Shown here piece by piece: positions 3,937 to 46,557 of a stretch of 64,000 bases of DNA; the first letter of the stretch is position 1, and the number at the start of each line of letters is the position of its first letter. A program made the position numbers and the translations under genes. Source of the stretch: Flavobacteriales bacterium (GTDB taxonomy: Bacteria > Bacteroidota > Bacteroidia > Flavobacteriales_F > PHOS-HE28); NCBI GenBank assembly GCA_039931265.1, contig JBDTSG010000147.1, positions 17,642 to 81,641 on the forward strand. Reading direction: 5' to 3'. The notes beneath the pieces are model-generated. The model was given only the letters and a program-made list of their open reading frames with translations. It did not search any database and was not told the DNA's origin.

Positions 3937-4995
3937 ATGGAAAGGGTCGCGGTGGTCATCCTCAATTGGAACGGCAAGCAATGGCTTGAACGGTTCCTTC
4001 CCGATGTGCTGCAACGCAGTGCGGGTGCCCGCGTGATCGTAGCGGACAACGGTAGCACCGATACTTCGCTGGAATGGTTGGCGGCCCATGCACCGCACGC
4101 GAAGACCATCGCCATGCCGACGAACCAAGGGTTCGCTGGCGGCTACAACACGGCGCTGGAGCAAGTGGAGTCGGAGTTCTTCATTCTGTTGAACAGCGAT
4201 GTGGAAGTGACGACCGGTTGGGTGGACGGGCTCTTGCGCTACATGGACGCGCATCCGGAAATGGCCGCCTGCCAACCCAAGATGTTGAGCCACGCCCGTC
4301 GCGATCGTTTCGAACATGCCGGCGCGGCAGGGGGCTTCATCGATCGCAACGGTTATCCGTTCTGCCGCGGGCGCATCTTCGAACTCACCGAACAGGACAG
4401 GGGGCAGTACGACGATGATCGCGAAGTGTTCTGGGCCACGGGCGCCTGCCTCATGATCCGCAGTGCCGCGTTCCGCGAAGCGGGCGGCTTCGATGCTTCG
4501 CTGTTCGCGCACATGGAAGAGATCGATCTGTGCTGGCGACTGCGCCGCACCGGTTGGCGTATCGGCTACACCAGTTCCAGTAGCGTGTATCACGTGGGCG
4601 GCGGAGCTCTTGGTTACGGAAGTCCGCGCAAGACGTACCTCAACTTCCGCAACAGCTTGATCGTCCTTGCCAAGAACCTGCGATCACGTGCGCTGATCGT
4701 GCGCATCGTCCGTCGCTTCTTCTTGGACAACATGGCTGCGCTGAAATTCCTGTTGGAAGGGCACGCCAGCCATGCGTGGATGGTAGGGCGCGCACATCGC
4801 CACTTCTGCTATCGCCTACCCGCGATCCTACGTGAACGCCGACGGCTGAAGGCCTTGGAACACGATACTGACCTTACTGGCCAGTATTTGCGCAGCGTGG
4901 CCTATGATCGCTTCATCCTCGGGTGGAAGAAGTTCAGCGAGCTGGACAGGCACGCCTTCGGCCTCACCCTGCCCTCTCCAAAGGGGAGGGTCTGA
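3937..4995 (+). CDS. Glycosyltransferase family 2
   Basis: VVILNWNGKQWLERFLPDVL...VIVADNGSTDTS...QGFAGGYN are GT2 motifs. The last ~11 codons (GLTLPSPKGRV*) are read from a palindromic repeat element. Confidence 0.85.
   Translation: MERVAVVILNWNGKQWLERFLPDVLQRSAGARVIVADNGSTDTSLEWLAAHAPHAKTIAMPTNQGFAGGYNTALEQVESEFFILLNSDVEVTTGWVDGLLRYMDAHPEMAACQPKMLSHARRDRFEHAGAAGGFIDRNGYPFCRGRIFELTEQDRGQYDDDREVFWATGACLMIRSAAFREAGGFDASLFAHMEEIDLCWRLRRTGWRIGYTSSSSVYHVGGGALGYGSPRKTYLNFRNSLIVLAKNLRSRALIVRIVRRFFLDNMAALKFLLEGHASHAWMVGRAHRHFCYRLPAILRERRRLKALEHDTDLTGQYLRSVAYDRFILGWKKFSELDRHAFGLTLPSPKGRV
4960..4992. repeat. Small GC-rich palindromic (REP-like) element: GGCCTCACCCTGCCCTCTCC-AAA-GGGGAGGG
   Basis: Inverted repeat CCCTCTCC/GGGGAGGG with a CCTCACCCTG flank. 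The same family recurs at 8947..8979 and, inverted, at 9023..9059. It lies at the convergent junction of the GT2 gene and aroQ. Confidence 0.5.
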
Positions 4996-5515: not shown

Positions 5516-5530
5516 GCACACAGTATCGCC

Positions 5531-6124
5531 TCAACGTTTGCCTTGCACGGCAATGGGCGATCGTCGCCGCTCGATATCGGAGATTTCCTTTCGGTCCTTT
5601 CGTGTTCCTGCGCCTCCAGGGACGCTCCGCTCAACTGTCTTCTTCGGTTCCATGTCAGAAATCAAACGGAACACGGCAATTTTCTCCGGCTTGATCGCTG
5701 CCGTTTCCGGTGCGCGTTTGGTTGGATGGGTCACGAGCCTCACGTTGTCCACGTCAGGGCATTTGCGCTTCACATAGCTCCACTTCTTGCCCACATGTAT
5801 CGAACGCGTAACGCTTTCACCATTGGCATCAACCACGGTTACCCGATGCATACCAGCGTCGGCTATGAATACCTCACCGCCCAACCACGGATACGCGTGC
5901 CATATGATCCGGTAGGGTGCCACGCCACCTGAAACATCAAGCGCGATGGAACCGGGGAACGTGCGCATTTCCTGTGGTACCGAAACAGATCGCTCGGCGC
6001 CGCTGCAGTGGCAGGGACGCACTAGTGTAGCGTGCGCTTTTACGGTGCGGACATCGACAGTGAGGTTGCTTGCATCCGCAAGTGGCGCGAGCAACAACAA
6101 TGCGGGAATGAGGAGCGCTCTCAT
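5531..6124 (-). CDS. Hypothetical secreted protein with a single SprB-type repeat and a basic C-terminal tail
   Basis: Signal peptide MRALLIPALLLLAPLADA and DVSGGVAPYRIIW (GGxxPYxYxW, SprB/CHU repeat signature). The C-terminal half is K/R-rich and of low complexity. Confidence 0.5.
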   Translation of the reverse strand: MRALLIPALLLLAPLADASNLTVDVRTVKAHATLVRPCHCSGAERSVSVPQEMRTFPGSIALDVSGGVAPYRIIWHAYPWLGGEVFIADAGMHRVTVVDANGESVTRSIHVGKKWSYVKRKCPDVDNVRLVTHPTKRAPETAAIKPEKIAVFRLISDMEPKKTVERSVPGGAGTRKDRKEISDIERRRSPIAVQGKR

Positions 6125-6222
6125 GGTCGTTGGGTGTTCGTACAATTCGAATGTAGGCTCATCCTGTTCTATGCGCGCTACTTCGCGCGGATCCACCATT
6201 CTAGCCCGCAGCCGGTATGAAT

Positions 6223-8400
6223 TCACCGCTTGAGCAATGGGAGCGCATGGCGGGCGCCGTCAGTCGTCCACACCATCAGCAGGTACGCCCCGACAGGCCA
6301 CCGCGACAAGTCGAGGGTTCCACGATCGGCCCGGATCATCTCCACCTCCACCCGTTTTCCATCGCTACTGAACGCCTCGATGGATCGGATCGCACCTGGG
6401 TCCATCAAGCCGACGATCATGACACGATCATGCGTAGGGTTCGGCACCAACGAAAGCGTGGATCCGGGTGCAGTGTTCTCCACATCCGTCCCTTGAGTCG
6501 CCGTCACCACGGCATCATTCGTTCGCACCGCTGAATTGAAGTCGAAGAAAATATCCGCCGCGTTGCTCATCACCGTTCCCGGCTGAAGCGGTTGGGCAGG
6601 CTTGATCCGAAAGCTCACCAAACCATGGCTCAGTGCTTCATTCGTGCTGCTGTCCGGTAAGAGGATGTTGTTGAAGGTCCACTTCACCACGCGCTCAGGA
6701 AGGAACTGCACGCTGAACGCATGGCTTGCAAGGCCTTGCTCGAAGCTGGACATGTCCAGATCGGCATCGAGCGTATCCGTGATGGCAACGGTGAACGCGG
6801 TGTCGGTTCCGGTATTCTGGAATTGGATCACATAGTCGAGGTATTCGTCTTGGCCGATGTAGTACAGGTCATTGCTCCATCGGGTGCTGGTGCGCACCTC
6901 CTTCGCATTGGGATCGTAGCTACCGGTAACGGTAGTGCTCAGATCGGTGGTGTTGTTGACGAGGCTGCTTTCCGTGTTCGGCTGGAATGCGGACCACTGA
7001 TGCGTGACCACCGTACCGATCAAGCCCGGGTTCGGCGGAAGCTGCAGCTGCACACTGAAGCCCAATGATCCGAATGCCGTTGGCGCCGAAAGGCCGCTCC
7101 ATGTCACTACGTTGCCCACAACACCTGAGGGCGTGGGCACCGAGGAAACAAAAGCGAACTCCGGGTCGAACGTGAAGGTGGCATCCACTGCGCCGCTCTG
7201 CTGGCCGCTCAGGTTCCGCACCGTCAAGTATACGGTCTGTATGAACCCGGGTCGCGCGGCGGTTGCGAGCATCTGCACACCGAGATCCAGCGGTATCAAG
7301 CTGCTATCGGCCACATCCAGCACCGTTGCTCCGCCGTTGGTGATCACGAACGGAACAGGGTTGGCCGCTGGGCACAGTGGCAGCAGGTCCGCACCCGGCG
7401 CCTGATCCAAGGTGTAATTGCCCGGGCCCAAATTGGTGCCGTACGCGCCGTCAATGTTCGTGATCACATACTGCTGGTTGGGTAGAATGGTCAACACACG
7501 ATAGGGTATCCCCTCATCAGCGACATCCTGCACACAATCCTGATCGTGATCGAAGAAGAGGCTGCCACTGAGCGTTCCGCAGTTCCCTCCCAGATCCGGG
7601 ATAAGGATAGGAAGCGTTTCAGCGAAGCAGCCGTTCCCGCCGGGCCAAGTGCGGGAAGCAGTGTACATCCCCGGCAACAGACCGACCAAGGGGATCTGCA
7701 CGCCCCATCCGGTGATGTTCGAATTGACGATCAACACATTGTTGGGGTCGCGCACTTCAATGAGACATCCGAACAAGGAGTTCATGTCGCCATTGGTTTC
7801 CAGCACGAAGGAGCCATTGGCACCTCCGCAAGCACCTACGATCGATGTGGCTGCCATCGGTGTGGGTTCCGGCACGTGCATGGTGGTGCTGGCAGAACCC
7901 GGACACCCGTTGGCATCAGTGAAGGTTACCGTGGCCGTTTGGCCATTGCACCAGCCCTGTTGGAAGTCGGCGAGGTTCAACCCCATGGTCTGGGTTGGGG
8001 TATACGACCAACCGTACGGCACGGTGCCATTGATCGCCCATAGGCGCACGCTACCGTCACATCCGTTCGGACAAGCATGTGGGTCCACCAGATCAAGTTG
8101 CGCGGAAACGAACGGGTCGTTCAGGATCACCACATTCGTGGAAGCAGTTGCGCTCATGGCGTCCGTCACTTCCACCAGATAGGTACCCGCACTGAGGTCG
8201 GCGGCATAGGCGGTTCCTTGGCCAATGCCCGGCGTTGGCGTCCATACATATGTGTACGGTGGCACACCTCCCCATGCTTGAACTTCGGCTTGCCCTTTCG
8301 CATTGCCGCAGGCCTCGTTGCGCACATAGGTGACGTTGATGGTCAATACCGCTTGGGCCATGGCGGGCAATGCGATCAGAAGAAAGGAGAGACTTCGCAT
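6223..8400 (-). CDS. T9SS-sorted cell-surface protein (SprB repeats, DUF11-like conserved repeat domain, type A C-terminal sorting domain)
   Basis: Signal MRSLSFLLIALPAMAQA; GGVPPYTYVW repeat; the C terminus LSLVPNPTHDRVMIVGL...GKRVEVEM...GAYLLMVWTTDGARHALPLLKR matches the T9SS CTD pattern. Confidence 0.8.
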   Translation of the reverse strand: MRSLSFLLIALPAMAQAVLTINVTYVRNEACGNAKGQAEVQAWGGVPPYTYVWTPTPGIGQGTAYAADLSAGTYLVEVTDAMSATASTNVVILNDPFVSAQLDLVDPHACPNGCDGSVRLWAINGTVPYGWSYTPTQTMGLNLADFQQGWCNGQTATVTFTDANGCPGSASTTMHVPEPTPMAATSIVGACGGANGSFVLETNGDMNSLFGCLIEVRDPNNVLIVNSNITGWGVQIPLVGLLPGMYTASRTWPGGNGCFAETLPILIPDLGGNCGTLSGSLFFDHDQDCVQDVADEGIPYRVLTILPNQQYVITNIDGAYGTNLGPGNYTLDQAPGADLLPLCPAANPVPFVITNGGATVLDVADSSLIPLDLGVQMLATAARPGFIQTVYLTVRNLSGQQSGAVDATFTFDPEFAFVSSVPTPSGVVGNVVTWSGLSAPTAFGSLGFSVQLQLPPNPGLIGTVVTHQWSAFQPNTESSLVNNTTDLSTTVTGSYDPNAKEVRTSTRWSNDLYYIGQDEYLDYVIQFQNTGTDTAFTVAITDTLDADLDMSSFEQGLASHAFSVQFLPERVVKWTFNNILLPDSSTNEALSHGLVSFRIKPAQPLQPGTVMSNAADIFFDFNSAVRTNDAVVTATQGTDVENTAPGSTLSLVPNPTHDRVMIVGLMDPGAIRSIEAFSSDGKRVEVEMIRADRGTLDLSRWPVGAYLLMVWTTDGARHALPLLKR

Positions 8401-8610
8401 ATGCTCAACGTTTGATGAAGGTGGTGTTCAGGCTGCGCGCTGCTCAAAGCCGCACATGTACCGGTCGGCGCGGTGATGATGCTGAAGAATGTGGGGTTGC
8501 AGAGTTGCAAGGTAGACGGCCACCACACCGCATGGCTGCCTCCCGACCTCCTGCGTCCGCACACAACCTACTGTTCACTGATGGGTACTTTCGCCGCCCT
8601 TCCAGGATCA

Positions 8611-14881: not shown

Positions 14882-15937
14882 TCAACGCACCGCGATCACT
14901 GGACCGGACGCCCGGGGCACGATCGCGCCTATGGCCTTGGACGGCAACCGATGCCGTTCGAGCAATTCCACGATCATTCCCGAATGGCCGGGATCCACGG
15001 CCATCAGCAAGCCCCCGCTCGTTTCCGGATCCGCTAGGACGAACATCCTTTCCATCGTCCCCGCGCCCACGATCCTGTGCCCGTAGCTCTTCCAATTGCG
15101 CAACGCGCCGTCCGGGTAACAACCCTGTGCTACAAGGTTCCGCGCGTATTCATGCACCGGCACTGCGGTGTAGTCCAACTCAGCGTTCAACCCGGATCCG
15201 TTGCACATCTCCAGCAAGTGACCGAGCAGTCCGAATCCCGTTACATCCGTTAGCGCATGCACCTGCGGCAGTCGGCCCAATTCCATGCCGATGGTGTTCA
15301 GGTGCGCCATTGCATCGCGCATCAACTCGGCTTGCTCCTGTGCAAGTATGCCGCGCTTCTGCGCAGTACTGAGGATTCCGACACCCAGCGGCTTGGTGAG
15401 GAACAAGATGTCGCCCGCTTGCGCCGTGTCGTTGCGTTTGATGAAGCGCTTGTCCACTTCACCGGTTACGGCCAGGCCGAAGAATGGCTCGGGGGCATCG
15501 ATGCTATGACCACCAGCCAAGGGAATACCCGCATCGTGGCAGGCGCGTCGGCCTCCCTCCACCACTTGTTGAGCGAGCTCGGGCCCGAGCTTATCGATCG
15601 GCCAGCCGAGAATGGCGACGGCCAGCAAAGGCTTTCCGCCCATGGCGTACACATCGCTGAGCGCATTGGTAGCCGCGATCCGCCCGAAGTCGTACGCATC
15701 ATCCACAATGGGCGAGAAGAAATCGGTGGTGCTGATCATGCAACGGCCATCGGCCAGCTCGTACACCGCTGCATCGTCGCGGCTACCATAACCAACAAGC
15801 AACTTCGGGTCGGGCAAGGTGCCCAACGCGCTTTTCAGGATCACTTCCAGTTGCGCTGGCGCGATCTTGCAACCACAGCCGGCGCCGTGGCTGTATTGCG
15901 TCAATCGGACCGGTTCAGGCTTGGTGGGGGTCTCCAT
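14882..15937 (-). CDS. selD: Selenide, water dikinase (selenophosphate synthetase), Cys-type
   Basis: RLTQYSHGAGCGCKIAPAQLEVIL...GRIAATNALSDVYAMGGKP...AGGHSIDAPEP is near-colinear with E. coli SelD; the active site has Cys rather than Sec (no in-frame TGA). Confidence 0.9.
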   Translation of the reverse strand: METPTKPEPVRLTQYSHGAGCGCKIAPAQLEVILKSALGTLPDPKLLVGYGSRDDAAVYELADGRCMISTTDFFSPIVDDAYDFGRIAATNALSDVYAMGGKPLLAVAILGWPIDKLGPELAQQVVEGGRRACHDAGIPLAGGHSIDAPEPFFGLAVTGEVDKRFIKRNDTAQAGDILFLTKPLGVGILSTAQKRGILAQEQAELMRDAMAHLNTIGMELGRLPQVHALTDVTGFGLLGHLLEMCNGSGLNAELDYTAVPVHEYARNLVAQGCYPDGALRNWKSYGHRIVGAGTMERMFVLADPETSGGLLMAVDPGHSGMIVELLERHRLPSKAIGAIVPRASGPVIAVR

Positions 15938-16946
15938 CGTATGCGATCAGGCGTTGCGCCAAGCCACGAAGATCGCTGGCCACAGCTGGCAGCCGCGTTA
16001 TGCGTGAAGGATGACGTTGGGCGGTACCGTGCTGATAGCTCTTGTCGTAATAGCTAAGGGTGATAACAGCCACTGTGTACAGGTCATCCGCGTCAAGCGC
16101 TTCCAATGCTCTTTTGCAGTGCTGGGGTCCGAGCCGTTTATGAATGCGCTTGGTCGCCTCAGCCAGTTCCTCCTTAGGATACTTGCCATAGTCCTCAACC
16201 AGGCGGGCGGCGCGTTCTTCAATGGACATTTCGGCGAAGAACATCCGGGCTTCCCGCATTTGCGCGAAGAACGCGTCGTGGATCTTCGCCCTGCCGATCA
16301 TCATGCTCTCGTCTTCCACCCAAACGGGGCGCTTGACATCCACCGACCGCAGCGCCTGCCACAACAGGTTCTCGAAATGCTCGGTGGTGGGTTGTGGCAA
16401 TTCGCCGATGGCTCCGAAGCTCGATCCCTTGTGGTGCGCCAGTGCTTCCAGATCCACCACCTGCTGGCCAAAGGTCCGCAAGTGCTTCAACGTTTCCGTT
16501 TTGCCCGTGCCCGTGTATCCGCCAAGCACCCGCAGGTCGAACGGGTTGTTCATCTCCGCCTGCACATGGTTCCGGAAGCCTTTGTAACCGCGCTTCAACG
16601 TTGAGACTTCCGCAAAGCCCGCCTTGTCGAGCAACCATGCAACGCTGCCGCTGCGCTCACCACCACGCCAGCAATGCACACGGATGCATCCGTGGGGCGC
16701 GATCGTCCGGGCCTGCTCCACGATCCACGCCATCTTGGGCCCAACGATGCGCAGCCCTTCCAACACTGCGGCATCGCGACCTGTCTGCTTGTACAGCGTG
16801 CCCACGATCGCACGCTCTTCGTCTGTGAACAACGGCAGACTTGTCGCACCGGGGATATGTCCGCGCGAGAATTCCCCCGGTGAACGCACGTCGATGATGG
16901 GTTCATCCAACGCGAGGAAGTCGACGATGGACAGGGCGCGCAGCAT
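15915..16946 (-). CDS. mnmH: tRNA 2-selenouridine synthase (rhodanese + P-loop)
   Basis: N-terminal rhodanese domain (CWRGGERSG) and a GGYTGTGKT Walker A motif. It overlaps the selD start by 23 nt in a classic selD-ybbB/selU arrangement. Confidence 0.9.
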   Translation of the reverse strand: MLRALSIVDFLALDEPIIDVRSPGEFSRGHIPGATSLPLFTDEERAIVGTLYKQTGRDAAVLEGLRIVGPKMAWIVEQARTIAPHGCIRVHCWRGGERSGSVAWLLDKAGFAEVSTLKRGYKGFRNHVQAEMNNPFDLRVLGGYTGTGKTETLKHLRTFGQQVVDLEALAHHKGSSFGAIGELPQPTTEHFENLLWQALRSVDVKRPVWVEDESMMIGRAKIHDAFFAQMREARMFFAEMSIEERAARLVEDYGKYPKEELAEATKRIHKRLGPQHCKRALEALDADDLYTVAVITLSYYDKSYQHGTAQRHPSRITRLPAVASDLRGLAQRLIAYDGDPHQA

Positions 16947-17018: not shown

Positions 17019-18086
17019 TCAGCGGAACAGATCCAATTGCCCTTGCTCCGGTCGCCGGAACAAAGCGGTGTTCAAATCGGGCATGTGCCTTCCTGCAAAG
17101 ACACGGCGGTAGGTGACCTTGAACAGTTGCCGCACGGTGTTGGCGAACTCCCCTTCGCCGCGCATACGCCTGCCGAAGTTCGAGTCGTTCATGGCGCCGC
17201 CGTGCATTTCGCTCACCTGGGCGATCACCTTGGCCGCGCGATCGGGGAAATGCTCGTGTACCCAATTGTCGAACACCGGTTTCACCGCACCGTTGGTGCG
17301 CACCACCGTGTAACCGGCATGCACCGCCCCGGCATCGGCGGCGGCCTGCATCAACGTTGGGATCTCCGCCTCGTTCAGGGCCGGTATGATGGGTGCGATC
17401 ATCGCCATGGTGGGCACACCGGCTTTGCTCAGCGCTTCGATCGTCTTCACACGACCCGCCCCCGTGCTGGTGCGCGGCTCCATCACGCGGCGTAGGTCCT
17501 CGTTCAGGGTGGTCAAACTGATGGCAACGCTGGCGAGGCCCATGGATGCCAGTTCAGCGATCAGGTCCAGATCGCGCAGGATCAATGCGTTCTTGGTGAT
17601 CATGGCAACGGGTTGACGGAATTCCAGTAGCACCTCCAGCATCCGCCGCGTGATCCCCTCCTTCCGTTCCACCGGTTGGTAGCAATCCGTGTTGCCCGAG
17701 AGCATGATCGGTTCCGGCAGCCACTTCTTGTTCATCAGCGCTGCACGGAGCAGATCCGGCGCGTTGCGCTTCACAATAATGACGCGCTCGAAGTCCAGAC
17801 CCGCGCTATAGCCCCAGTACTCATGCGTGGGCCGCGCGTAACAATAGGCGCAGCCATGCTCGCATCCTTGGTAGGGGTTCATGCTCCAACCGAAGGACAG
17901 GTCAGGCGAGGTCACCTTGTTCACGATGGTCTTCGGGTTCTCCACCACGTAACGCGTGCGGCGGTCTTCCTCCTCCACCTCGTCGATGCCTTCCCAATGC
18001 ACAACGCCGTAGCTGTGTTTCAGGAAGCGGTTGGCCACCTGCGTTGCAGCACCACGGCCTTTGATGGGTTTTCCGTCGATCGGCAT
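17019..18086 (-). CDS. PA0069-family radical SAM protein (SPL/photolyase-like)
   Basis: MNPYQGCEHGCAYCYARP carries a CxxxCxxC motif; the family matches over its length. The ATG at 18086 (MPIDGKPIKGRG) is used. Confidence 0.85.
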   Translation of the reverse strand: MPIDGKPIKGRGAATQVANRFLKHSYGVVHWEGIDEVEEEDRRTRYVVENPKTIVNKVTSPDLSFGWSMNPYQGCEHGCAYCYARPTHEYWGYSAGLDFERVIIVKRNAPDLLRAALMNKKWLPEPIMLSGNTDCYQPVERKEGITRRMLEVLLEFRQPVAMITKNALILRDLDLIAELASMGLASVAISLTTLNEDLRRVMEPRTSTGAGRVKTIEALSKAGVPTMAMIAPIIPALNEAEIPTLMQAAADAGAVHAGYTVVRTNGAVKPVFDNWVHEHFPDRAAKVIAQVSEMHGGAMNDSNFGRRMRGEGEFANTVRQLFKVTYRRVFAGRHMPDLNTALFRRPEQGQLDLFR

Positions 18087-18359
18087 GCGAATAATATATG
18101 CTCGATCAGCGGGGAGCACCTGCGAATTCCGATGAAAGGAAGACAGGCCTGCTGAAGTACAGGTTTGGTGCTGTCCGCTGGAACAGCCCATCCCTCCCCG
18201 GCTGCTCACTCAAGGAAAGCACCGTTCACTCGGAGTTGCTGTTCGAACTGCGTTCTTCAACATGACCGACCAGCAGCGCGATGTCTTCATGATGAAGGTG
18301 TGCAGGGATGGCGACCCCGATCGGGCCAAGGCCTTCAGCAGCAACGACCCCGCAGCGAA

Positions 18360-18455
18360 CTACGCCGTCTGCTTCACACTCTTCTTCGCCGCGATCGCCT
18401 TCTCCACCTCCGCAATGGCCCGCTTCGTCTTCAGCAACGAATCCGGAGTAACGCT
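18360..18455. repeat. Degenerate (~90% identical) duplicate of the 3'-terminal ~95 bp of ppsA (copy at 18760..18857)
   Basis: In the ppsA frame it reads ...VKSVTPDSLLKTKRAIAEVEKAIAAKKSVKQTA*, against the genuine ppsA C terminus ...SVTPDSLLKTKRAIAEVEKTIAVKKSVKVEA*. The CTA (TAG) stop is retained at 18360..18362. Confidence 0.7.
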
Positions 18456-18457
18456 CT

Positions 18458-18748
18458 TCACTTATTCCCAAAGCGCGTCCACAACCAACTCAGCGCAGCG
18501 CCCCAAAGAGCGCTGTTCAACAGAAGGAGGAAAACGCCCTCCCCCAAGCTCAAAGTGGCGTCTTCAAAAGGAATGAGAATGATCGGGAACCAGGTCACAT
18601 TGGCGATTGCACGAAATATTGCATTCGGCGGGTCAGCGAAGGCCTCCAACTCATACTCGTCTATTCCGACGGAGAGGAAGTAGAATCCAAGCGCTAGTGA
18701 AACGAGAAAGTGGGTAGCGCTTAACCAGAACGTACGTCTCGCGCTCAT
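18458..18748 (-). CDS. Small hydrophobic (2-3 TM) protein of unknown function in a lower-GC insert
   Basis: MSARRTFWLSATHFLVSLALGFYFLSVG...FLLLLNSALWGAALSWLWTRF. The gene lies between ppsA and its duplicated 3' end. Local GC is about 50%, against about 63% for the window. Confidence 0.45.
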   Translation of the reverse strand: MSARRTFWLSATHFLVSLALGFYFLSVGIDEYELEAFADPPNAIFRAIANVTWFPIILIPFEDATLSLGEGVFLLLLNSALWGAALSWLWTRFGNK

Positions 18749-18761
18749 GGCCACAAAGCAA

Positions 18762-21218
18762 CTACGCCTCCACCTTCACACTCTTCTTCACCGCGATCGT
18801 CTTCTCCACCTCCGCAATAGCCCGCTTCGTCTTCAACAACGAATCCGGTGTAACGCTGATGGAATCGATCCCCAGTTCCACCAGGAACTGCGCAAAGTCC
18901 GGAAAGTCAGAAGGCCCTTGGCCGCAGATGCCCACTTTGGTTCCGGTACGTTTCGCGGTTTCGATCAGCAGCTTCAGCATGGCTTTTACGGCCGGGTTGC
19001 GCTCGTCGTAGAGGTGGCTGACCAGTGCGCTGTCGCGGTCCAGGCCAAGGGTGAGCTGGGTGAGGTCGTTGCTGCCGATGGAGAAGCCGTCGATGTGTTT
19101 GGCGAACTCTTCGGCGAGGATGATGTTGCTGGGGATCTCGGCCATGAGGTAGAGTTCCAGACCTTCCTTGCCGCGCTTCAGGCCGTATTCGTCCATCACG
19201 CCTTTCACCTTTTGCAGTTCTTCCACGGTGCGGCAGAAGGGCACCATGACGACCACGTTCTTCAAGCCCATCTTCTCGCGCACACGGCGGATGGCCTTGC
19301 ACTCGAGGCCGAAGGCTTCCTTGTACACCTCGCTGTAGTAGCGGCTCGCGCCGCGCCAGCCGATCATCGGGTTCTCCTCGGTGGGCTCGAAATGTTCGCC
19401 GCCCAGCAGGTTCTTGTACTCGTTGCTCTTGAAGTCGCTGAAGCGCACGATCACCTTGTTCGGGTAGAAGGCCGCGGCGATTTTCGCGATGCCGTAGCTG
19501 AGCTTTTTTACGAAGAAGGTCTCCTCGTCTTCGTAGCCGTTGATCAGGTAGCTGATCTTGCCGCTGAGGGCCACATCGCCGAGCTCCTTGTGTTGCAGCA
19601 GCGCGAGCGGGTGCGCTTGGATGTAGTTGTTGATGATGAACTCTTCGCGCGCCAGGCCGACACCGGCGTTCGGCAATCCGGAGAATTTGAAAGCGAGATC
19701 CGGACTTGCGACGTTGAGCATGATCGGCGTCTTCGTCTCCGGCATGTCGGCGAGCAGCGTTTCCTCTTTGCTGAAGGGAATGATACCGTGGTAGATGATG
19801 CCGACGTCGCCTTCGCAGCAACTGGCGGTCACTTCCATGCCGGTATCGAGCAGGTCGGTGGCGTTGCCGCAACCCACGATGGCGGGCACGCCCATTTCGC
19901 GCGCGACGATCGCCGCGTGGCAGGTACGTCCGCCTTTGTTGGTGATGATGGCGCTGGCCTTCTTCATGATCGGCTCCCAATCCGGGTCGGTCATGTCGGT
20001 AACGAGCACGTCGCCCGCTTGGAAATCCTTGCCGTCGCCGCCACCGCCACGACCGTCGAGGCTGTATAGGATGCGCACTTTTCCGCTGCCGATGCGATCA
20101 CCGATGGCGATGCCACGCGTGACTTCTTTCACCACGGCGGGCTTGTCGATCTTGTATTCCACAACACGATCCGTGGCCTTGCGGCTGTGGATCGTTTCGG
20201 GCCGCGCCTGCACGATGAAGAGCTGCTTGGTGAGTCCGTCGATGGCCCACTCCACATCCATCGGGCACCAGTGGCCTTTCTTGTCGCTGTAGTATTTCTC
20301 GATGGCCGCCACACTGCGCGCGATCTCCAACGCCTGATCATCGCTGATGCAGAAACGGTTGCGCTGCGCACGTTCCATGGGGATCACGGACACAGGCTTT
20401 CCGGGCTCGCCACCATAAACCATTTTGCGGTCCTTGTTGCCGAGCTTCTTCTCGATGATGCTACTGAAGCCTTCGGCCAATGTGGGCTTGAAGACGAGGA
20501 ACTCGTCCGGACTCACGGCACCTTGCACCACCATTTCCCCAAGGCCATAACTGCCGTTGATCAGCACCACGTCCTTGAAACCGCTTTCCGTATCGAGGCT
20601 GAACGCCACGCCGCTGCTGCCCACATCGGAGCGCACCATCTTCTGGATACCCACGCTGAGACCCACTTGGAAGTGGTCGTAGCCCAGGCTTTCGCGGTAA
20701 ACGATTGCGCGATCGGTAAAGAGCGAGGCGAAGCAGTTACGCACCGCACTGATCAGGTCCTGGTGGCCGCGGATATTGAGGAAGGTTTCCTGCTGCCCTG
20801 CGAAGGATGCATCGGGAAGATCTTCCGCAGTGGCTGATGAACGCACGGCCACGTCGGTTGCTTCCTGGCCATACTTCTGGCTCATTTCATCGTAGCGCTG
20901 AAGGATCCCTTTCCAGATCTCTTCCGGGAACTTGCCGTTCTTGATCAGCGTTCGAACCGCCAAACCGGTGCGACGGATGTTCTCCACGTCATCCACGTCC
21001 AAGCCCGCCACGATGTCGCGGATCTTCTGGTCGAGCACATTGTGCGCAATGAAAGCCTCGTAGCTCGCCACGGTGACGACGAATCCGCCGGGCACTTCCA
21101 CACCGAGCTTCCCCAGGTGCTGGATCATCTCCCCGAGGCTGGCGTTCTTGCCGCCCACCGTGGGGATGTCGCTCAATTCAACTTCGTGGAGCCATTTGAG
21201 GTAGGGAGCGGTGGGCAT
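18762..21218 (-). CDS. ppsA: Phosphoenolpyruvate synthase (pyruvate, water dikinase)
   Basis: MPTAPYLKWLHEVELSDIPTVGGKNASLGEMIQHL aligns with the E. coli PpsA N terminus; the PEP-utilising and PPDK-type domains continue to 830 aa. The track start at 21254 is a TTG. Confidence 0.9.
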   Translation of the reverse strand: MPTAPYLKWLHEVELSDIPTVGGKNASLGEMIQHLGKLGVEVPGGFVVTVASYEAFIAHNVLDQKIRDIVAGLDVDDVENIRRTGLAVRTLIKNGKFPEEIWKGILQRYDEMSQKYGQEATDVAVRSSATAEDLPDASFAGQQETFLNIRGHQDLISAVRNCFASLFTDRAIVYRESLGYDHFQVGLSVGIQKMVRSDVGSSGVAFSLDTESGFKDVVLINGSYGLGEMVVQGAVSPDEFLVFKPTLAEGFSSIIEKKLGNKDRKMVYGGEPGKPVSVIPMERAQRNRFCISDDQALEIARSVAAIEKYYSDKKGHWCPMDVEWAIDGLTKQLFIVQARPETIHSRKATDRVVEYKIDKPAVVKEVTRGIAIGDRIGSGKVRILYSLDGRGGGGDGKDFQAGDVLVTDMTDPDWEPIMKKASAIITNKGGRTCHAAIVAREMGVPAIVGCGNATDLLDTGMEVTASCCEGDVGIIYHGIIPFSKEETLLADMPETKTPIMLNVASPDLAFKFSGLPNAGVGLAREEFIINNYIQAHPLALLQHKELGDVALSGKISYLINGYEDEETFFVKKLSYGIAKIAAAFYPNKVIVRFSDFKSNEYKNLLGGEHFEPTEENPMIGWRGASRYYSEVYKEAFGLECKAIRRVREKMGLKNVVVMVPFCRTVEELQKVKGVMDEYGLKRGKEGLELYLMAEIPSNIILAEEFAKHIDGFSIGSNDLTQLTLGLDRDSALVSHLYDERNPAVKAMLKLLIETAKRTGTKVGICGQGPSDFPDFAQFLVELGIDSISVTPDSLLKTKRAIAEVEKTIAVKKSVKVEA

Positions 21219-23766: not shown

Positions 23767-25371
23767 ATGAAACACGCTACCGTTCTTCTTGCCTTGCTGT
23801 CGAGCAGCTTGCTCCAGGCCCAAGTGCCCGGTGTGGAATGGATGCGCACGGCCGGTGAATTCAGTCAGTTCGGCAAGCACTTGAGCGCCGTTGGTATGAA
23901 CGGATACATATACACTGCGGCGCGGGCCATGAACCCCGATTACGGCAACGGCTTCGTGGTGGCCGATGAGGGCATTGTTCTGGCCCGCTACGACAGCACC
24001 GGCACTATCGACTGGTGCCAGGGCATCAGCACATCACCGGTCGAATTCGAGGATGTGACGAGCATTGCCGTAACGAGCACCGGCGGTGTCTGGGTGCTGG
24101 GCCAGTTCACTTCCACCACCCTCACCGTTGGGGGTACGGTGCTCACCAACATGGGCAGTTCCTCTTCCTTTCTTGCCCGCTATAGTGTCCTGGGTGCGGT
24201 TGAGGAGGTGCACAGTTGGGGGGGAACCGGCAGCAGCATCACCAATGCAAGCGACCTGTGCATCGACGGGATGGACCGCGTGCATGTGACCGGCGCCACC
24301 GATGCAACGTCGATCACGGTCGATGGTGTTACAATGACCAACAGTGGGACCGGGCTTCAACTGTACACATTGGCCTTCGATGCGAACGGCACCGCGCTCT
24401 GGGGTGTCATGAGCGCTTCACCCGGCGGGACGGCTAGCGGGCGGGCCATAAGTGTGGATGCATCACTGAGAACGTACATAGCCGGGGTGGCGTCCACCGA
24501 TCTGGTGATCAACGGCACCACTTTGCCCGTGGGCAACCAGGACAAGGCCGTGCTGCTCACTTTCGATAACGTCGGTGCGCTCACCCACATGGAGGTGATG
24601 GCCGATTGTGTGCCCGTGGACATGGCCGTTGACGATGCCGGCCACGCCTACGTCTGCGGCTTCGTTGTGAACTCGGCCGTCTTTGGGAACGATACGCTGG
24701 TGCCTTCGGTGCTCGACGGTTTCGTGGCGGCCTTTCCCGGTAATGGGACGTGCGACTGGGTGGTGGGCGTGAGCGGCGCGCAGGACAACGAGATCTGCTA
24801 CAGCGTGGCGTTGGACAACTCTCACACACACTTGATCTCAAGCGGCATCTTCACCTTCGATGCATGGTTCGGTCCGCTGCATGTGCAGAGCGGGATGGTA
24901 CCCAGCGATGGCTTCATCATGCACCTGGACACGGCCGGGGCGGTGAACTGGGTGAAGGACATGACCGACAATGGACCGACGCTGTACGCGCAAGCGTTGT
25001 ACGATGCGAACGACCGCATCCACACGAGCGGTCTCACGCAGAGCACGCAGATCTACCTCGATGAGATCGTGGGTATCACCGCTCCCACCATAGGGTTCCT
25101 GGCGCGTTTCGATGGCTTGGTGATGGCCGTTCCCCAAGCAGAAGAGCAGCAAGACGCGCTCGTATACCCCAACCCAAACAACGGGATCTTCACGCTCGAC
25201 CTCCCACGGGATGCGCGTGCGATCATCATTGCGGATGCGCGAGGGCGTGAGCTACAACGCATGGCCGTGCGATCATCGCGTTCGTCTTTCCTCGTTGCAA
25301 CGAGCGGCGTGTACTTCGTGAGTGTGGTTTCCGATAGCGGTCGCACGGTACAACGCATCGTGGTTGACTGA
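23767..25371 (+). CDS. T9SS-sorted secreted protein with SBBP-like beta-propeller repeats
   Basis: Signal MKHATVLLALLSSSLLQAQ; C terminus ALVYPNPNNGIFTLDL...GRELQRM...GVYFVSVVSDSGRTVQRIVVD. Confidence 0.75.
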   Translation: MKHATVLLALLSSSLLQAQVPGVEWMRTAGEFSQFGKHLSAVGMNGYIYTAARAMNPDYGNGFVVADEGIVLARYDSTGTIDWCQGISTSPVEFEDVTSIAVTSTGGVWVLGQFTSTTLTVGGTVLTNMGSSSSFLARYSVLGAVEEVHSWGGTGSSITNASDLCIDGMDRVHVTGATDATSITVDGVTMTNSGTGLQLYTLAFDANGTALWGVMSASPGGTASGRAISVDASLRTYIAGVASTDLVINGTTLPVGNQDKAVLLTFDNVGALTHMEVMADCVPVDMAVDDAGHAYVCGFVVNSAVFGNDTLVPSVLDGFVAAFPGNGTCDWVVGVSGAQDNEICYSVALDNSHTHLISSGIFTFDAWFGPLHVQSGMVPSDGFIMHLDTAGAVNWVKDMTDNGPTLYAQALYDANDRIHTSGLTQSTQIYLDEIVGITAPTIGFLARFDGLVMAVPQAEEQQDALVYPNPNNGIFTLDLPRDARAIIIADARGRELQRMAVRSSRSSFLVATSGVYFVSVVSDSGRTVQRIVVD

Positions 25372-25402
25372 TAGCGAACGCCATGGAGCGATATTCGCCA
25401 CC

Positions 25403-25861
25403 GTGCGCATCATCGAATACGAGCCGCGGTACCGATCCGAATTCAAGCGCATCAACGTCGCATGGATAGCGAAGCGCTTCGAGGTGGAGGATGTGGACCT
25501 CGAGGTACTCGATCGGCCTGAGGAGAAGATCCTGGCGCTCGGCGGGAGGATCCTGCTGGCGTTGGAGGGCGATGAAGTAGCGGGCACTTGCGCTTTGCTC
25601 AACGCCGCGCCCGGTGTTTACCAGTTGGCGAAGATGGCCGTGGACGAGCCCTTCCGTGGTGCGGGCATCGGCCGTGCACTTTGTGAGGCCGGTGTAGAAA
25701 TAGCCCGGCAGTTAGGCGCGACCAAAGTCATGCTCTATTCCAACACGAAGGGATCCGCAGCGGCCGTGCAGTTGTATCGGAAACTCGGTTTCCGGGAGCT
25801 GCCACTACCAACACAGGCCTACCTCCGTGCCGACATCTATATGGAGTTGATGCTGCATTGA
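25403..25861 (+). CDS. GNAT family N-acetyltransferase
   Basis: ...YQLAKMAVDEPFRGAGIGRALCEAGVEIARQLG...LYRKLGF is a GNAT core. The start is uncertain: GTG at 25403 (MRIIEYEP) or the ATG at 25322, which would overlap the upstream gene by 50 nt. Confidence 0.6.
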   Translation: MRIIEYEPRYRSEFKRINVAWIAKRFEVEDVDLEVLDRPEEKILALGGRILLALEGDEVAGTCALLNAAPGVYQLAKMAVDEPFRGAGIGRALCEAGVEIARQLGATKVMLYSNTKGSAAAVQLYRKLGFRELPLPTQAYLRADIYMELMLH

Positions 25862-38850: not shown

Positions 38851-41800
38851 TCAGGGCAGTTGCTCCTGGCGTGTTGTCGTAGGAACGCTTCCGCCAACGT
38901 TCACCAGGATCGGATCGCGATCGTTGTTCACACCGATGTACTTGGTGACGCCATCGAGGTTGATGTCCGTGACCATGTAGCCCGGTGTGGTGTTCGTGGG
39001 TACACTGCCACCGATGTTCACCAGGATCGGATCGCGATCGTTGTTGGTGCCGATGTACTTCAACATGTTGTCGCGCACCACGTTGCCGCTCCATTGTGCC
39101 CATTTGCCATTGGGAAGTTGTGTGCGGGCCTGCGTGCCATAGGTGGCGGTGGTGGTCAGCGTGAAGTCAATGCTCTTCTCGTCCTTGTTCAACAGGGTGC
39201 TCGTGCCGATCATCACCCCGAAGTGGTTGCGGTGGCGAACAGCGATGAAGTAGTTGTCGCTGGCAACGTTGAAGAGCATCCGAGGGTAACCATCGGTGCC
39301 TATGATATCCCCGTCGCGTTGCAACAAGGCGCTCCGCGTTGCAAGCACCTGCGCACTGTTGTTCTTGTTGCGCAGTTCAACCAGCACCCAATCCACGATC
39401 GCGTTCTGGCCGGTTACAGCAAGCATTCCCGGCGATACCGTCTCCCCTCCTCCACCTCCGGCATGCGTAAAGCCGAGGCCCGTGAAGGGTTCGGTCGACG
39501 GAATGAACCCTTGCGCGCGAAGGTCATCGCGCATCAATCCGGTGTTCGTGTCGAAGGCACCCTGCAATACCGTCCGCAGTTTCACACTCGGTGAACAATC
39601 CTGCCAACGTGCCAGATAAGCGCCCGCTACGATGGTGCGCGTCGGAACGCTCGGCCGTTCCCAGCGCACCGTCATATGATCGCTTCCTGTTCCCTCCTTC
39701 TGCAGAAACTCGAAGTAGTAGTACACGCCTGCTTGCAACTGTATGCCTGCGCTGCGCTGGGTTGGGTACTTGGCGTACTCGGTATCGTTCGTCCAGCCCG
39801 CAACACTGGCGATCTGCTGCTTCAATTCAGGCTTGGCATTGAGGCTCAGATACAGAACGGAAGCCTCATTGCTCGTAACCGTGAAATAGAACAGTCCCGT
39901 CTCCGGCGCTATGATGTAGCCACGCATGCGTGTGCCGGTATTGTCGCCCCAGTTGGTCGGTCCCTGGATGCTCGTTGGGAATGAAGATCCGTTCGGGCTG
40001 TTCGGATAGTTGGCGTTGCTCGTAAGGTCGCTCACCGCTACACCGGAACCGATACCCGTCCAGAATTCGCGCAGTATGCTGCCAGCTGCACCAACGCACT
40101 GGGGTGGGTCCAAAGAGATGACACTGATAACGCGCGACGCATGCCCGACCAAGCCTTCATTGTCCGTTACGGTGAGGGTTACCACATGATCGCCAGCGCT
40201 GGTGAAAGTCTTGCTTGGCGACGGTCCGGTGCTCATTGTACCATCCCCGAAATCCCAGGCATAGCTCGCTATGGTCCCGTTGTCAGTGCTTGATGATCCA
40301 CTGAAATTAACCGGGAGCGGCGCTTGCCCGGAGCTTACGTTGGCGACGATCACCGCCACGGGCGGGGTATTGGCGCAACGCGGTTGCAGGTCATGCGTAA
40401 CGGTCGTGCTCAATCCCTTTGAATCAGTAACCGTGTATTTCACCTCGTACCAATAGTCGTCGATCGCGCAACCGACACCACTGATCACGGTGTTCGTTGT
40501 GGCGGTGTAGACGGGACTTTCGGGGTGCGTGTGGTTGTTGTGGTGGAAGATCGTTTGCCACTGGTGCGTCAATGGCAGGGAGTTGGGTTCAAGGTCGATT
40601 GCCGTTCCAGCACAGGCGTAGGTCGTATCCACACCCACCGGGTAGTGATGTCCATCCGGAAAGCTCGTAATGCTCACCAAGGGTGGCGTGTTGTTCACGC
40701 TGACGATCAGCGTTGCCGTGTTGAAGGCACTGCTCGGGTCGAGCACCGTTAACGTGACGTTGTATGTGATCGGGTTGCCGTTGAGCGGTGTGTACGTGTG
40801 CAGTGGGTTGGGCAACGAACTGTTCGGTGTGCCATCACCGAAGTTCCAACTGTAAGTGAGGGCTGCGTTCTCCGGATCGGTACTGTTGCTGCCTGTGAAC
40901 TGCACCGTGAGCGGGCCAGGCCCGTACTGCACGTTCTGTTGCGCAACAGCGGCTGGGGGCAAATTGGTCACCCCGATGGGGGCGATCTTCCGAATGGTGT
41001 AGGTATCGTAGCGTATGTACCAAAGCGCGTGGTCGGGGCCCTCTGTAATGAATACCACCGGCCCTAGAATGTCACCGAAGCTGGCCACGCTCACCGGACC
41101 ATTGTCCGCATTGAACGTGAACCGGCGGATCCACGCACCAGCGTAGTCGGCGTTGAAGTACACGTTCTGGTAACCGAGCGGCCAACCAATACCCGTAAGC
41201 CATGTACCGCCAACGGACGCGCTGCCGCCGAACCGGGGCCCCGTTACCGGGCTACCGGGCATATCGATGTCGAAGGTCACTGCAGTATTACCACTGAACC
41301 CTGCACAACGGCTGCGGTTCGCATGCGCCCAGTCGATCTTCGGTCGGCTGTGGAACCAGTGCGGCACCTCCAGCGGCACTTGCACCGCCGCATTGCACGG
41401 ATTCGGATGGCCGTTCAGGGGCATTTGCGTTTCCTGTTTGAGCAGGTCCTTGAAGTTGAAGTACTGCTGCGTGCATCCTCCGGTACCGAACAGCGGGTTC
41501 GGCATGTCGGGATTCGCAGTGGGTACGGTGTCGAACGCCAAATGGCTTTCCATTCCCTCGTACAAAGGCCACCCGAAATTCTGGCCGGGGTCGGTACAAA
41601 CGTTCAGTTCCTCCCAATCATCAGAACCGACATCACCGATGTAGAAAGCCCCGGGGTTCCCATCGGCCGGGTTGGCGCTGCCGCTACCGGGGCGGCGTGT
41701 CATACGGTACGGATTGCGCAGGCCCGAGGCCCAGACCCGGCTCTTGGGCGCACGCGGTTGCAACGGATCATAGTACGGGTTGCTCGGAACGCCATCGCCC

Positions 41801-42564
41801 GTGTTCGGGTCGATCCTCAGAAGTTTTCCGTTGTAGCAATTGAGCAGTTGGCTCCTGAACGAACCGATGTTCTCGTTCGGGCGGATGATGCTGTCGTTGA
41901 GCGCTTGGCTCCAGTAGGTCTCACTCGCACTACCAAAGTCATTGGAGCTGTAGCTCCCTCCGTCACCAACGGTGGCCATCAAGGTGCCGTCGGCGCCGAA
42001 AACCAGTTGGCCGGTGCTGTGACTTTCGTGCAGTAAGGGCACTCCTGTCTTCTTGGTTTCACCCAATAGGACCACTCGGCTGTTGTCATCCACCGTATTG
42101 AAGTTGGGACCGATCGCGGTGTACCGCGTGATCCGCATGATCGTCGCTGAGAAGTAGTCGTTCACGAAAATGCTGTAGTTGTCAGTGCCATAGTTCAGGA
42201 GGTGGTGGCGATCAACAGCGTACAAAGCGTAGATGCGTCCATTGCTAAGGAAGTTGGGATCGAGCGTAAAGCCCAGAAAACCATGATCACGCCATTCACC
42301 CACTTCGGTATTGATGTCCAGGAGCGGCGGGTTCAATTTCACACCGTTCTCCACGATCCACACGATGCCGGCTTTCTCCCATACGTACATCCGGCCGTTG
42401 GCATCGAACGTGAACCCCACCGGTGCGTTGAACCCGCCCATCACCAACGCATCGGTGAAACCTGACGGAACGGACTGCGAACTGACCTTGGTCGATGAGA
42501 ATGCGAACAGCATTAGGGCGATCACCCACGCCGAGAAGGGGTCAGAGTTGATGGTCCGGTTCAT
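38851..42564 (-). CDS. Large secreted multidomain protein A (GSDH-like beta-propeller + PKD repeats + PA14 + unassigned C-terminal module)
   Basis: Signal MNRTINSDPFSAWVIALMLFAFS. SVPSGFTDALVMGGFNAPVGFTFDANGRMYVWEKAG is GSDH-like. PKD-like repeats follow (...DPENAALTYSWNFGDGT...). The PA14-like block is GYIIAPETGLFYFTV...YYYFEFLQKEG. The C terminus carries two NNDRDPILVN(I/V)GGSVPT repeats. Confidence 0.8.
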   Translation of the reverse strand: MNRTINSDPFSAWVIALMLFAFSSTKVSSQSVPSGFTDALVMGGFNAPVGFTFDANGRMYVWEKAGIVWIVENGVKLNPPLLDINTEVGEWRDHGFLGFTLDPNFLSNGRIYALYAVDRHHLLNYGTDNYSIFVNDYFSATIMRITRYTAIGPNFNTVDDNSRVVLLGETKKTGVPLLHESHSTGQLVFGADGTLMATVGDGGSYSSNDFGSASETYWSQALNDSIIRPNENIGSFRSQLLNCYNGKLLRIDPNTGDGVPSNPYYDPLQPRAPKSRVWASGLRNPYRMTRRPGSGSANPADGNPGAFYIGDVGSDDWEELNVCTDPGQNFGWPLYEGMESHLAFDTVPTANPDMPNPLFGTGGCTQQYFNFKDLLKQETQMPLNGHPNPCNAAVQVPLEVPHWFHSRPKIDWAHANRSRCAGFSGNTAVTFDIDMPGSPVTGPRFGGSASVGGTWLTGIGWPLGYQNVYFNADYAGAWIRRFTFNADNGPVSVASFGDILGPVVFITEGPDHALWYIRYDTYTIRKIAPIGVTNLPPAAVAQQNVQYGPGPLTVQFTGSNSTDPENAALTYSWNFGDGTPNSSLPNPLHTYTPLNGNPITYNVTLTVLDPSSAFNTATLIVSVNNTPPLVSITSFPDGHHYPVGVDTTYACAGTAIDLEPNSLPLTHQWQTIFHHNNHTHPESPVYTATTNTVISGVGCAIDDYWYEVKYTVTDSKGLSTTVTHDLQPRCANTPPVAVIVANVSSGQAPLPVNFSGSSSTDNGTIASYAWDFGDGTMSTGPSPSKTFTSAGDHVVTLTVTDNEGLVGHASRVISVISLDPPQCVGAAGSILREFWTGIGSGVAVSDLTSNANYPNSPNGSSFPTSIQGPTNWGDNTGTRMRGYIIAPETGLFYFTVTSNEASVLYLSLNAKPELKQQIASVAGWTNDTEYAKYPTQRSAGIQLQAGVYYYFEFLQKEGTGSDHMTVRWERPSVPTRTIVAGAYLARWQDCSPSVKLRTVLQGAFDTNTGLMRDDLRAQGFIPSTEPFTGLGFTHAGGGGGETVSPGMLAVTGQNAIVDWVLVELRNKNNSAQVLATRSALLQRDGDIIGTDGYPRMLFNVASDNYFIAVRHRNHFGVMIGTSTLLNKDEKSIDFTLTTTATYGTQARTQLPNGKWAQWSGNVVRDNMLKYIGTNNDRDPILVNIGGSVPTNTTPGYMVTDINLDGVTKYIGVNNDRDPILVNVGGSVPTTTRQEQLP
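39023..39663. repeat. 641-bp tract 100% identical to 42920..43560 (paralog gene-conversion block)
   Basis: A hand comparison of both copies shows no mismatches across the tract, while the flanks diverge immediately (~85% identity). Confidence 0.8.
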
Positions 42565-42747
42565 TCGAAGGTCAATGTTGAAGATCGGGCGAGGCAAGCT
42601 ATCCGGTGTTTCAATACGGGTCAAGGTGCCACCAGAACGATCCCATGGGCGCGGAACGGACCTCCCTTGACATGTCCTCACCGGCAGCACGCCGCACTTC
42701 GTGAAGGGAACCCTGGGGCCATGGCAGCGCGAGGCCTGAGGCTTCCA

Positions 42748-46470: not shown

Positions 46471-46557
46471 TCGTCTATGGATTTGACGGATTGAGCGTGG
46501 CAAACTATCGGGTTCGTCTACCCCAAGTCAAGTAACACCGATCATACATTGGCTGCC

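Follow-up and report, generated by a model that had tools for sequence, protein, structure and literature searches.

A 64,000-nucleotide (nt) stretch of a Flavobacteriales bacterium genome (GenBank assembly GCA_039931265.1, contig JBDTSG010000147.1, positions 17,642 to 81,641; hereafter the window) carries a ppsA gene, encoding phosphoenolpyruvate (PEP) synthase, whose 3′ end is present twice, with a small gene lying between the two copies (Table 1). The ppsA gene itself is intact. A single open reading frame (ORF) contains the Pfam domains PPDK_N (E value 5.8e-117), PEP-utilizers (1.4e-26), and PEP-utilizers_C (8.2e-67), and its product is 80-90% identical in amino acids (aa) to PpsA from Flavobacteriales metagenome-assembled genomes, the alignment beginning at residue 13 of the ORF as read from its TTG start. 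An exact look-up of the window PpsA in the protein collection returned no entry. The duplicated segment is a direct repeat of 98 nt with nine mismatches (91% identity) and a spacing of 402 nt (blastn self-comparison, E = 4e-34), close to the ~95-base pair (bp), ~90% identical duplicate described in the initial annotation of this DNA. Further copies, which that annotation had thought worth seeking, did not turn up: the 64-kb window holds no third copy, no other repeat of such kind, and no second copy of the intervening spacer. The repeat consists of ppsA coding sequence and has no internal inverted repeat.

The copy that completes ppsA, here termed the working end, encodes a C-terminus reading SVTPDSLLKTKRAIAEVEKTIAVKKSVKVEA before the stop codon. 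The distal copy, or remnant, reads SVTPDSLLKTKRAIAEVEKAIAAKKSVKQTA and has kept its stop; its peptide differs from that of the working end by four amino acid changes, all in the variable tail. Between them, the 304-nt spacer is similar neither to the part of ppsA that precedes the repeat nor to the DNA past the remnant (its local alignment to 18100..18357 scored no better than shuffled sequence), which rules out a simple 402-bp tandem duplication. Two plus-strand ORFs (18165-18683 and 18262-18576) run antisense to the remnant and the gene in the spacer. We judged these to be artifacts of high guanine-plus-cytosine (GC) content because a 440-aa antisense ORF also covers ppsA itself; 18262-18576, the sole one of the two tested, has no Pfam match. 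A promoter and terminator scan gave nothing above chance, including at the remnant, where no terminator-like site was found.

Table 1. Features at the ppsA 3′ end of the window, and the corresponding layout in the six lineages counted beside it
Feature or locus	Position	Strand	Details
Window: radical-SAM gene	17019..18209	-	True start probably near 18100; Pfam Radical_SAM; adjoins remnant
Window: stretch between remnant and radical-SAM gene start	18100..18357	-	GC 0.597; no similarity to spacer
Window: distal repeat copy, read as displaced ppsA 3′ remnant	18358..18455	-	32 codons, stop TAG 18362..18360, plus 2 nt
Window: candidate ORF covering remnant (speculative)	18360..18461	-	33 codons (GTG AAG AGC...), read from sequence
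Window: cargo, predicted small three-helix membrane protein gene	18458..18754	-	98 aa from GTG 18754, 96 aa from ATG 18748
Window: proximal repeat copy, working ppsA 3′ end	18760..18857	-	Last 32 codons, stop TAG 18764..18762, plus 2 nt
Window: ppsA (PEP synthase), intact	18762..21218	-	818 aa from ATG 21218; first listed in-frame start TTG 21254
L083/84/85	ppsA 5525-7975; small ORF 8001-8309 (P0002); repeat 7852-7970 and 8338-8456		Repeat 119 nt, 87% identity
L092 (NCBI GCA_046595075.1)			ppsA end, 103-aa ORF of window cargo family, 225-nt remnant
L093/94			ppsA, uncalled 149-aa lipoprotein-like ORF, remnant
L095/96			ppsA, WG-repeat gene, remnant 1, 166-aa membrane gene, decayed remnant 2
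L098-100			ppsA, cargo, remnant 1, 269-aa secreted protein gene, remnant 2
L102			ppsA, 117-aa membrane ORF on opposite strand, remnant

The gene in the spacer, which we call the cargo, is the only ORF of the insert. The initial annotation had placed a 96-aa hydrophobic ORF 8-14 nt past the ppsA stop, and this was accurate: the cargo starts 8 nt (GTG, 98 aa) or 14 nt (ATG, 96 aa) past the stop, ends 2 nt ahead of the remnant, and encodes three hydrophobic segments. The spacer is lower in GC (53.0%) than the window (59.2%) or ppsA (59.4%), and the cargo ORF (GC 0.532) has a third-position GC content (GC3) of 0.636 versus 0.80 for ppsA; the contrast first estimated (~50% versus ~63%) was thus right in direction and too large in size. 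A stop-free frame spanned the spacer in 517 of 5000 shuffles (~10%), which alone is not significant, and we accept the cargo as a gene because of its full-length homologs rather than the length of its open frame.

Those homologs are rare. Word-indexed protein searching and back-translated scans with the cargo ORF found no relatives. Two full-length homologs, labeled P0001 (E 6e-5) and P0002 (E 1.7e-4), of 109 and 102 aa, were recovered when 1.84 billion proteins were searched exhaustively with phmmer; compared loci are likewise labeled L001-L102. Each of the three proteins has three hydrophobic segments, they have HF, FP, and NSxLxG motifs in common, and they align over their full length. A third relative, the 103-aa ORF of L092, was found by its position and by BLASTP (1.5e-4). 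An AlphaFold2 model of the cargo protein consists of three helices at modest to low confidence (predicted local distance difference test score 64.5). The family has no Pfam match and corresponds to no existing Pfam family. Judging from these alignments, we take the window ORF to be a genuine gene whose family, rare and as yet unnamed, comprises predicted small three-helix membrane proteins. It is probably transcribed by read-through from ppsA. P0002 and the L092 member lie directly behind ppsA, as in the window. P0001 is encoded in a low-GC organism between MopE-like and Rce1-like genes (L086-L091, Logan assemblies); at this locus (L086) there is no ppsA and there are no flanking repeats, indicating that the link between the cargo family and ppsA is not an intrinsic one.

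The order ppsA, cargo, ppsA 3′ remnant recurs in six further related Flavobacteriales-like lineages, represented by metagenomes and one NCBI assembly, which makes seven with the window. The L083/84/85 case came to light through P0002, and searching with two remnant peptides as queries led to further ones. It yielded 22 short ORFs, each a fragment of the PpsA C-terminus and many preceded by unrelated N-terminal sequence; a search of this type is biased, as it finds only remnants that were called as ORFs. Two loci (L095/96 and L098-100) have two remnants in series. At L083 the repeat continues as weaker homology to ~148 nt, across a 4-nt indel. Cargo genes vary among lineages and, outside the loci of the small-ORF family, are unrelated. 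At every locus the cargo is lower in GC and GC3 than ppsA; the only Pfam match among cargo proteins is WG_beta_rep, and none is assignable to an immunity family. The DNA past the last remnant is different in each lineage. The initial annotation had proposed from the window alone that DNA was inserted at the end of ppsA, a substitute end displacing the resident one, and this proposal is supported. Could these layouts be artifacts in which an assembler joined two strain alleles of the ppsA end serially? The exact window proteins are absent from the searched collections and the two copies differ by about as much as alleles would. The L083/84/85 layout, however, was assembled at 99.9% identity in three samples (one from ENA and two from JGI), and further independent assemblies have the same layout, leaving this explanation hardly credible.

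Two loci, L097 (3531-6171) and L101 (2854-5219), were excluded: their ppsA genes are split by frameshifts and have no cassettes. The frameshifts are probably assembly or sequencing errors, and such pieces contaminate protein-level remnant searches. Separately, at L102 a GAD-like / T6SS_Tdi1_C gene of immunity type (3981-4568) lies ~1.5 kb past the remnant on the opposite strand; it is the sole hint that interbacterial-defense genes may occur in the neighborhood.

Other relatives have a bare ppsA end, with neither cargo nor remnant (L081/82, L005, L001-L004, L006, and L033). These include close kin of occupied loci: the PpsA of L081/82 is 96.6% identical to that of the window, and the ppsA of L005 is 88% identical in nt to that of L083. 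No remnant occurs within 6 kb of ppsA in the eight closest species representatives or at any more distant PpsA locus. The presence/absence polymorphism anticipated by the initial annotation is therefore found among relatives. That annotation had also named two observations that would speak against an insertion, namely a uniform arrangement in all relatives and a remnant belonging to a plus-strand gene; in fact relatives differ in arrangement and the remnant is not part of a real plus-strand gene.

We next consider where the two ppsA tails came from. The ratio of non-synonymous to synonymous substitution rates (dN/dS, Nei-Gojobori) between remnant and resident end is 0.195 in the window (27 codons only), 0.125 at L083, 0.135 at L092, 0.106 at L093, and 0.127 for remnant 1 of L095; among functional ppsA ends it is 0-0.07. 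Because neutral drift would be expected to give ~0.5, values of 0.11-0.20 imply that about nine-tenths of the divergence arose while both copies were working ppsA ends. In agreement with the ratios, the L083 remnant branch, with L005 as outgroup, carries seven synonymous changes and one non-synonymous change, and every change in the conserved 19 codons of the window remnant is synonymous. These substitution patterns suggest that the two tails are different, once-functional alleles from different lineages and not a duplicate decaying in place, and that the displacement events are comparatively recent. The initial annotation had attributed the ~10% divergence to an event that was old or to ends derived from different alleles; the dN/dS values and the L092 flank match described below mark the second option as the correct one.

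Which of the two window tails is the newcomer can be approached from their relatives. The end of the window remnant and its 14-nt flank (end and flank, GACGGCGTAGTTCG) are found again past the functional ppsA of a near relative, L092. The working tail of the window (VKVEA before the stop) is one nt from that of L081/82 (VKAEA), whereas the distal copy is four nt from the L081/82 tail. A remnant with an L092-like flank beside a working tail of L081/82 type points to the remnant as probably the old resident end and to the working end as having probably arrived with the cargo. The left crossover could not be placed by sliding identity along ppsA between the window and L082, which gave no clear break. 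At each locus the tail type of the remnant is the lineage-specific type of the host clade, so that no universal cassette-borne arm exists.

The L092 pair is itself a mosaic. For 132 nt upstream of a core, its two copies are 80% identical, with mostly synonymous differences; a 78-nt block is then 100% identical, and the tails that follow are unrelated. Over those 132 nt the L092 remnant is 80-83% identical to all known resident alleles, about equally distant from each. As a separate observation, the functional PpsA tail of L092 (448-520) contains a ~30-nt insertion that creates a new stop (ending in WKKEAASIKARVG), and the old stop and flank (GACGGCGTAGTTCGG) remain just downstream of the new one.

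A different history would be an ancient duplication in place, inherited vertically, homogenized by gene conversion with ppsA, and lost repeatedly through repeat-mediated deletion. Homologous small ORFs at the same position in three lineages and the lineage-specific remnant tails would fit such a history. So would a derived 20-nt insertion (CCGCAGAGCGGAACAGGTCC) within the GICGQG-coding part of the distal remnants of L095 (5734-5953) and L098 (1183-1449), a sign that some remnants persist across lineages; since these two remnants stand behind unrelated cargo genes, remnants can outlive cargo turnover. Nevertheless, the PpsA C-termini of the window and L092 are 97% identical while their small ORFs are only 25% identical, a contrast that fits cassette exchange and not vertical descent. 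The cargo of other lineages is unrelated, the spacer is unlike flanking DNA, the remnant branches are mainly synonymous where neutral decay would not be, and the equidistant 132 nt of the L092 remnant look like a foreign allele. We give little credence to this history.

Low dN/dS could also mean that the remnant is kept for a function of its own, as a translated 33-43-aa peptide with the sequence of the PpsA C-terminal helix or as an RNA or 3′-end element of the cassette transcript, a possibility compatible with any insertion mechanism. Most remnants are open to their native stop and many are called as genes. In the window the cargo stop TGA overlaps the GTG that opens the 33-codon remnant frame (GTGA, 18458-18461), and in L083, where the remnant was annotated as a gene of 43 aa, a GCG-to-GTG change has produced an in-frame GTG at its start; these GTG openings may be coincidence or translational coupling. 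However, origin from functional alleles explains the low dN/dS equally well, and the count of called genes is biased because the search returns called ORFs only. Moreover, older remnants decay: distal remnants and the 5′ parts of remnants are the more degraded, with frameshifts and, in remnant 2 of L095 and L098, the 20-nt insertion. The remnant also lacks a terminator-like site. Retention for function therefore seems to us improbable.

Taken as a whole, we regard it as very probable that the ppsA 3′ end is a recurrent hotspot of recombinational insertion in which another allele provides the replacement 3′ end. That this end serves the Flavobacteriales-like clade as a landing pad for small gene cassettes, and that insertion there is homologous, is the overall reading we favor with moderate confidence. 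Under this reading, a related lineage would have been the source of DNA that contained a ppsA 3′ end and a small membrane-protein gene and that recombined into the window ppsA. The incoming tail would now complete ppsA with the cargo behind its stop, and the resident tail would have been shifted downstream as the 98-nt remnant, still attached to the old downstream DNA. A RecA-type route to this product would be a Campbell-type single crossover of a unit made up of cargo and ppsA fragment. Equivalently, a double crossover may have occurred in which the remnant, moving together with the cargo, supplies a portable homology arm on the right-hand side. DNA held between two ppsA-homologous arms would be movable into any ppsA-bearing relative, whatever its downstream synteny. 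Pairing of the arm with the working end of an occupied locus would build an array, pairing with an existing remnant would replace the cassette, and recombination between the repeats would delete it precisely.

As to what drives the insertion, we lean toward homologous recombination rather than a dedicated recombinase, judging from end products, from which the type of crossover is also deduced. We do so because no recombinase is encoded nearby, because remnant length is variable, and because of the L092 mosaic. Two features expected of homologous insertion are present, namely copies derived from two functional alleles and, at L092, a mosaic around an identity block. The portable-arm model accounts for the restriction to ppsA, the independence from synteny, the fact that cargo may lie on either strand (L102), and the stronger degradation seen in distal remnants and in remnant 5′ parts.

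The serious rival is that a tyrosine or serine recombinase, supplied in trans or from a larger island since lost, integrates the cassettes site-specifically, with an attachment (att) core in the conserved SVTPDSLLKTKRAIAEVEK-coding block. In essence this is the model of the initial annotation, widened to mini-cassettes mobilized in trans. The resulting topology would be identical to that of e14 at icd with the icdC pseudogene (PMC13626634). It would explain why the target is one gene in one clade and why all nine remnants hold at least the last ~98 nt, the shortest, that of the window, beginning exactly at that block. The 78-nt block identical in both L092 copies is what an att identity segment would look like, and the arrays resemble tandem accretion at transfer RNA (tRNA) genes. 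Against it, none of the 23 proteins tested in window 2408-33483 (within ~15 kb) has an integrase, transposase, or resolvase Pfam match, and precomputed Pfam annotation shows no recombinase in the flanks of the other loci. In addition, the left boundary of ppsA homology ranges among loci from about -98 to about -250 nt, and up to 250 nt of homology lie upstream of any plausible core, where an att site needs none; a core inside the last ~98 nt held by all remnants may still exist. Outside L092, identical runs reach 18-22 nt at most, at differing positions, with no common identity block at a fixed place. If the recombinase came from a decayed island, the same near-total deletion would be needed independently in seven lineages. 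The initial annotation had pictured such a decayed, integrase-borne island with one cargo gene left; this picture is not supported, as seven lineages have a single gene as cargo in what is the native state and no integrase is near. We consider site-specific integration unlikely on balance, and still the alternative most deserving of attention.

Several points weigh against homologous insertion as we favor it. Integrase-mediated and homologous insertion leave the same topology, and thus the end products do not separate them; occurrence only at ppsA and in one clade would also be predicted by a dedicated trans-acting recombinase. The recombinase negatives cover parts of each genome only, so one encoded elsewhere is possible. 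No donor sequence or free intermediate was seen, and the window dN/dS rests on a short alignment. RecA acts poorly on homology arms as short as 98 nt with ~90% identity. Finally, the distance from cargo stop to recognizable ppsA homology is 0-40 nt in every cassette, and under pure homologous recombination such tight junctions arise only by later deletional trimming or as inherited junctions.

A more ambitious version of homologous insertion would see ppsA plus its 3′ fragment as a recombinase-free mobile platform, a RecA-driven analog of an integron with stacking, precise excision, and a strong housekeeping promoter. We offer this tentatively and hold it to be doubtful.

Comparison with known systems shows where the ppsA loci are familiar and where they depart from precedent. 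In E. coli, icd is a target for phage 21 as well as for the element e14. In E. coli K-12, e14 supplies a substitute icd 3′ end, and the displaced end forms the icdC pseudogene (PMC13626634); as related there with reference to Hill et al. 1989, the two ends recombine on excision into a chimeric functional gene. The ppsA loci are alike in that a direct repeat of the target 3′ end flanks the insert and the gene is kept intact by its substitute end. However, e14 measures 15 kb, encodes its own integrase, and has a defined att site, whereas the window insert has 304 bp, holds a single gene, and lacks a nearby integrase; at ppsA loci the duplicated segment is 98-250 nt depending on the lineage, and arrays of single-gene units occur. 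Islands at tRNA, transfer-messenger RNA (tmRNA), or protein-gene 3′ ends, such as SGI1 at trmE, similarly reuse the gene end, have partial target copies at their borders, and differ by presence or absence between close relatives. Such islands, as stated for SGI1, are integrase-driven and multi-gene, unlike the ppsA loci, with one gene per unit and no recombinase found. The tRNA/tmRNA-type integration invoked in the initial annotation is therefore apt for the topology, and for the mechanism is an analogy only.

Integrons and rAID-1 arrays offer a second parallel: compact, mostly co-oriented, lower-GC single genes stand past a fixed gene with repeats between them, and the cargo consists of small secreted or membrane proteins. 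rAID-1 arrays of Bacteroidales are recognized by three criteria: a XerD-like recombinase gene at the 5′ side, two or more low-GC genes in the same orientation, and immunity-gene homology (bioRxiv 10.1101/471110); at the ppsA loci no recombinase was found, and WG_beta_rep is the only Pfam match of their cargo. Differences from integrons are that the anchor is ppsA, with no IntI-type integrase domain in the flanks, that the repeat is the coding 3′ end of the anchor gene with no attC-like palindrome, and that one cargo (L102) lies on the opposite strand. Among other kinds of cassette exchange are homology-facilitated illegitimate recombination, minimal mobile elements, replacement flexible islands, and orphan C-terminal modules of Rhs and contact-dependent inhibition (CDI) proteins. 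As in these recombination-driven exchanges, of which transformation-generated merodiploids are an example (PMC3784515), at ppsA loci foreign genes enter via homology to a conserved gene, a displaced 3′ fragment lies downstream, and alleles are mosaic. At ppsA, in contrast, both arms come from one gene, so downstream synteny is not needed, and ppsA is a housekeeping enzyme gene and not a polymorphic toxin as in Rhs/CDI systems. In our literature search, ppsA was nowhere described as an attachment site, and a clade-wide cassette landing pad at its 3′ end is, as far as we found, undescribed.

The surroundings of ppsA show further flux. The product of the radical S-adenosylmethionine (radical-SAM) gene beyond the window remnant is 79% identical in aa to that of L001 2124-3218, which is on the other side of ppsA. 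In the window this gene follows the remnant and has the same orientation as ppsA; in L001 and L083 (4331-5452) it is immediately upstream of ppsA and divergent. A GNAT acetyltransferase gene sits beside the radical-SAM gene in L083, and in the window it is at 25322-25861. The displacement of both genes implies that the locus was rearranged locally, one end of the rearrangement falling in the ppsA 3′ region. Further along, the window carries two genes that overlap by 23 nt (14882-16946), one selD-like with AIRS domains and the other with a rhodanese domain; the L101 counterpart of the latter carries Pfam AAA_SelU. This pair is also found downstream of ppsA in L004, L006, and L101, and ppsA followed by selU-selD may be the older arrangement. 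At the bare locus L081 (721-2481), from a sister species, a lower-GC pair encoding an AAA_21 ATPase and a 199-aa protein lies convergent just past ppsA; Pfam describes AAA_21 as a putative AbiEii toxin. A homologous AAA_21 pair (81% identical in nt) is present at L098 (4236-5995), where the cassette array and a HipA_2/DUF3037 pair separate it from ppsA. The region downstream of ppsA is a general flexible hotspot. Elsewhere in the window, two minus-strand genes (38851-42690 and 42748-46503) are tandem paralogs of 1279 and 1251 aa with 78-84% nt identity and a 3.9-kb period.

If the homologous insertion we favor is correct, a fragment of a housekeeping gene would serve as a portable homology arm, allowing single accessory genes to cross species without an integrase or transposase. 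Turnover of the flexible genome by this means would be invisible to mobile-element finders keyed on recombinases, inverted repeats, or tRNA targets. If instead a recombinase acts in trans, ppsA would join the protein genes known as attachment sites, with single-gene units accreting there. For this environmental Flavobacteriales clade, the ppsA hotspot is a place where small membrane and secreted proteins are rapidly exchanged, including a previously unrecognized three-helix family.

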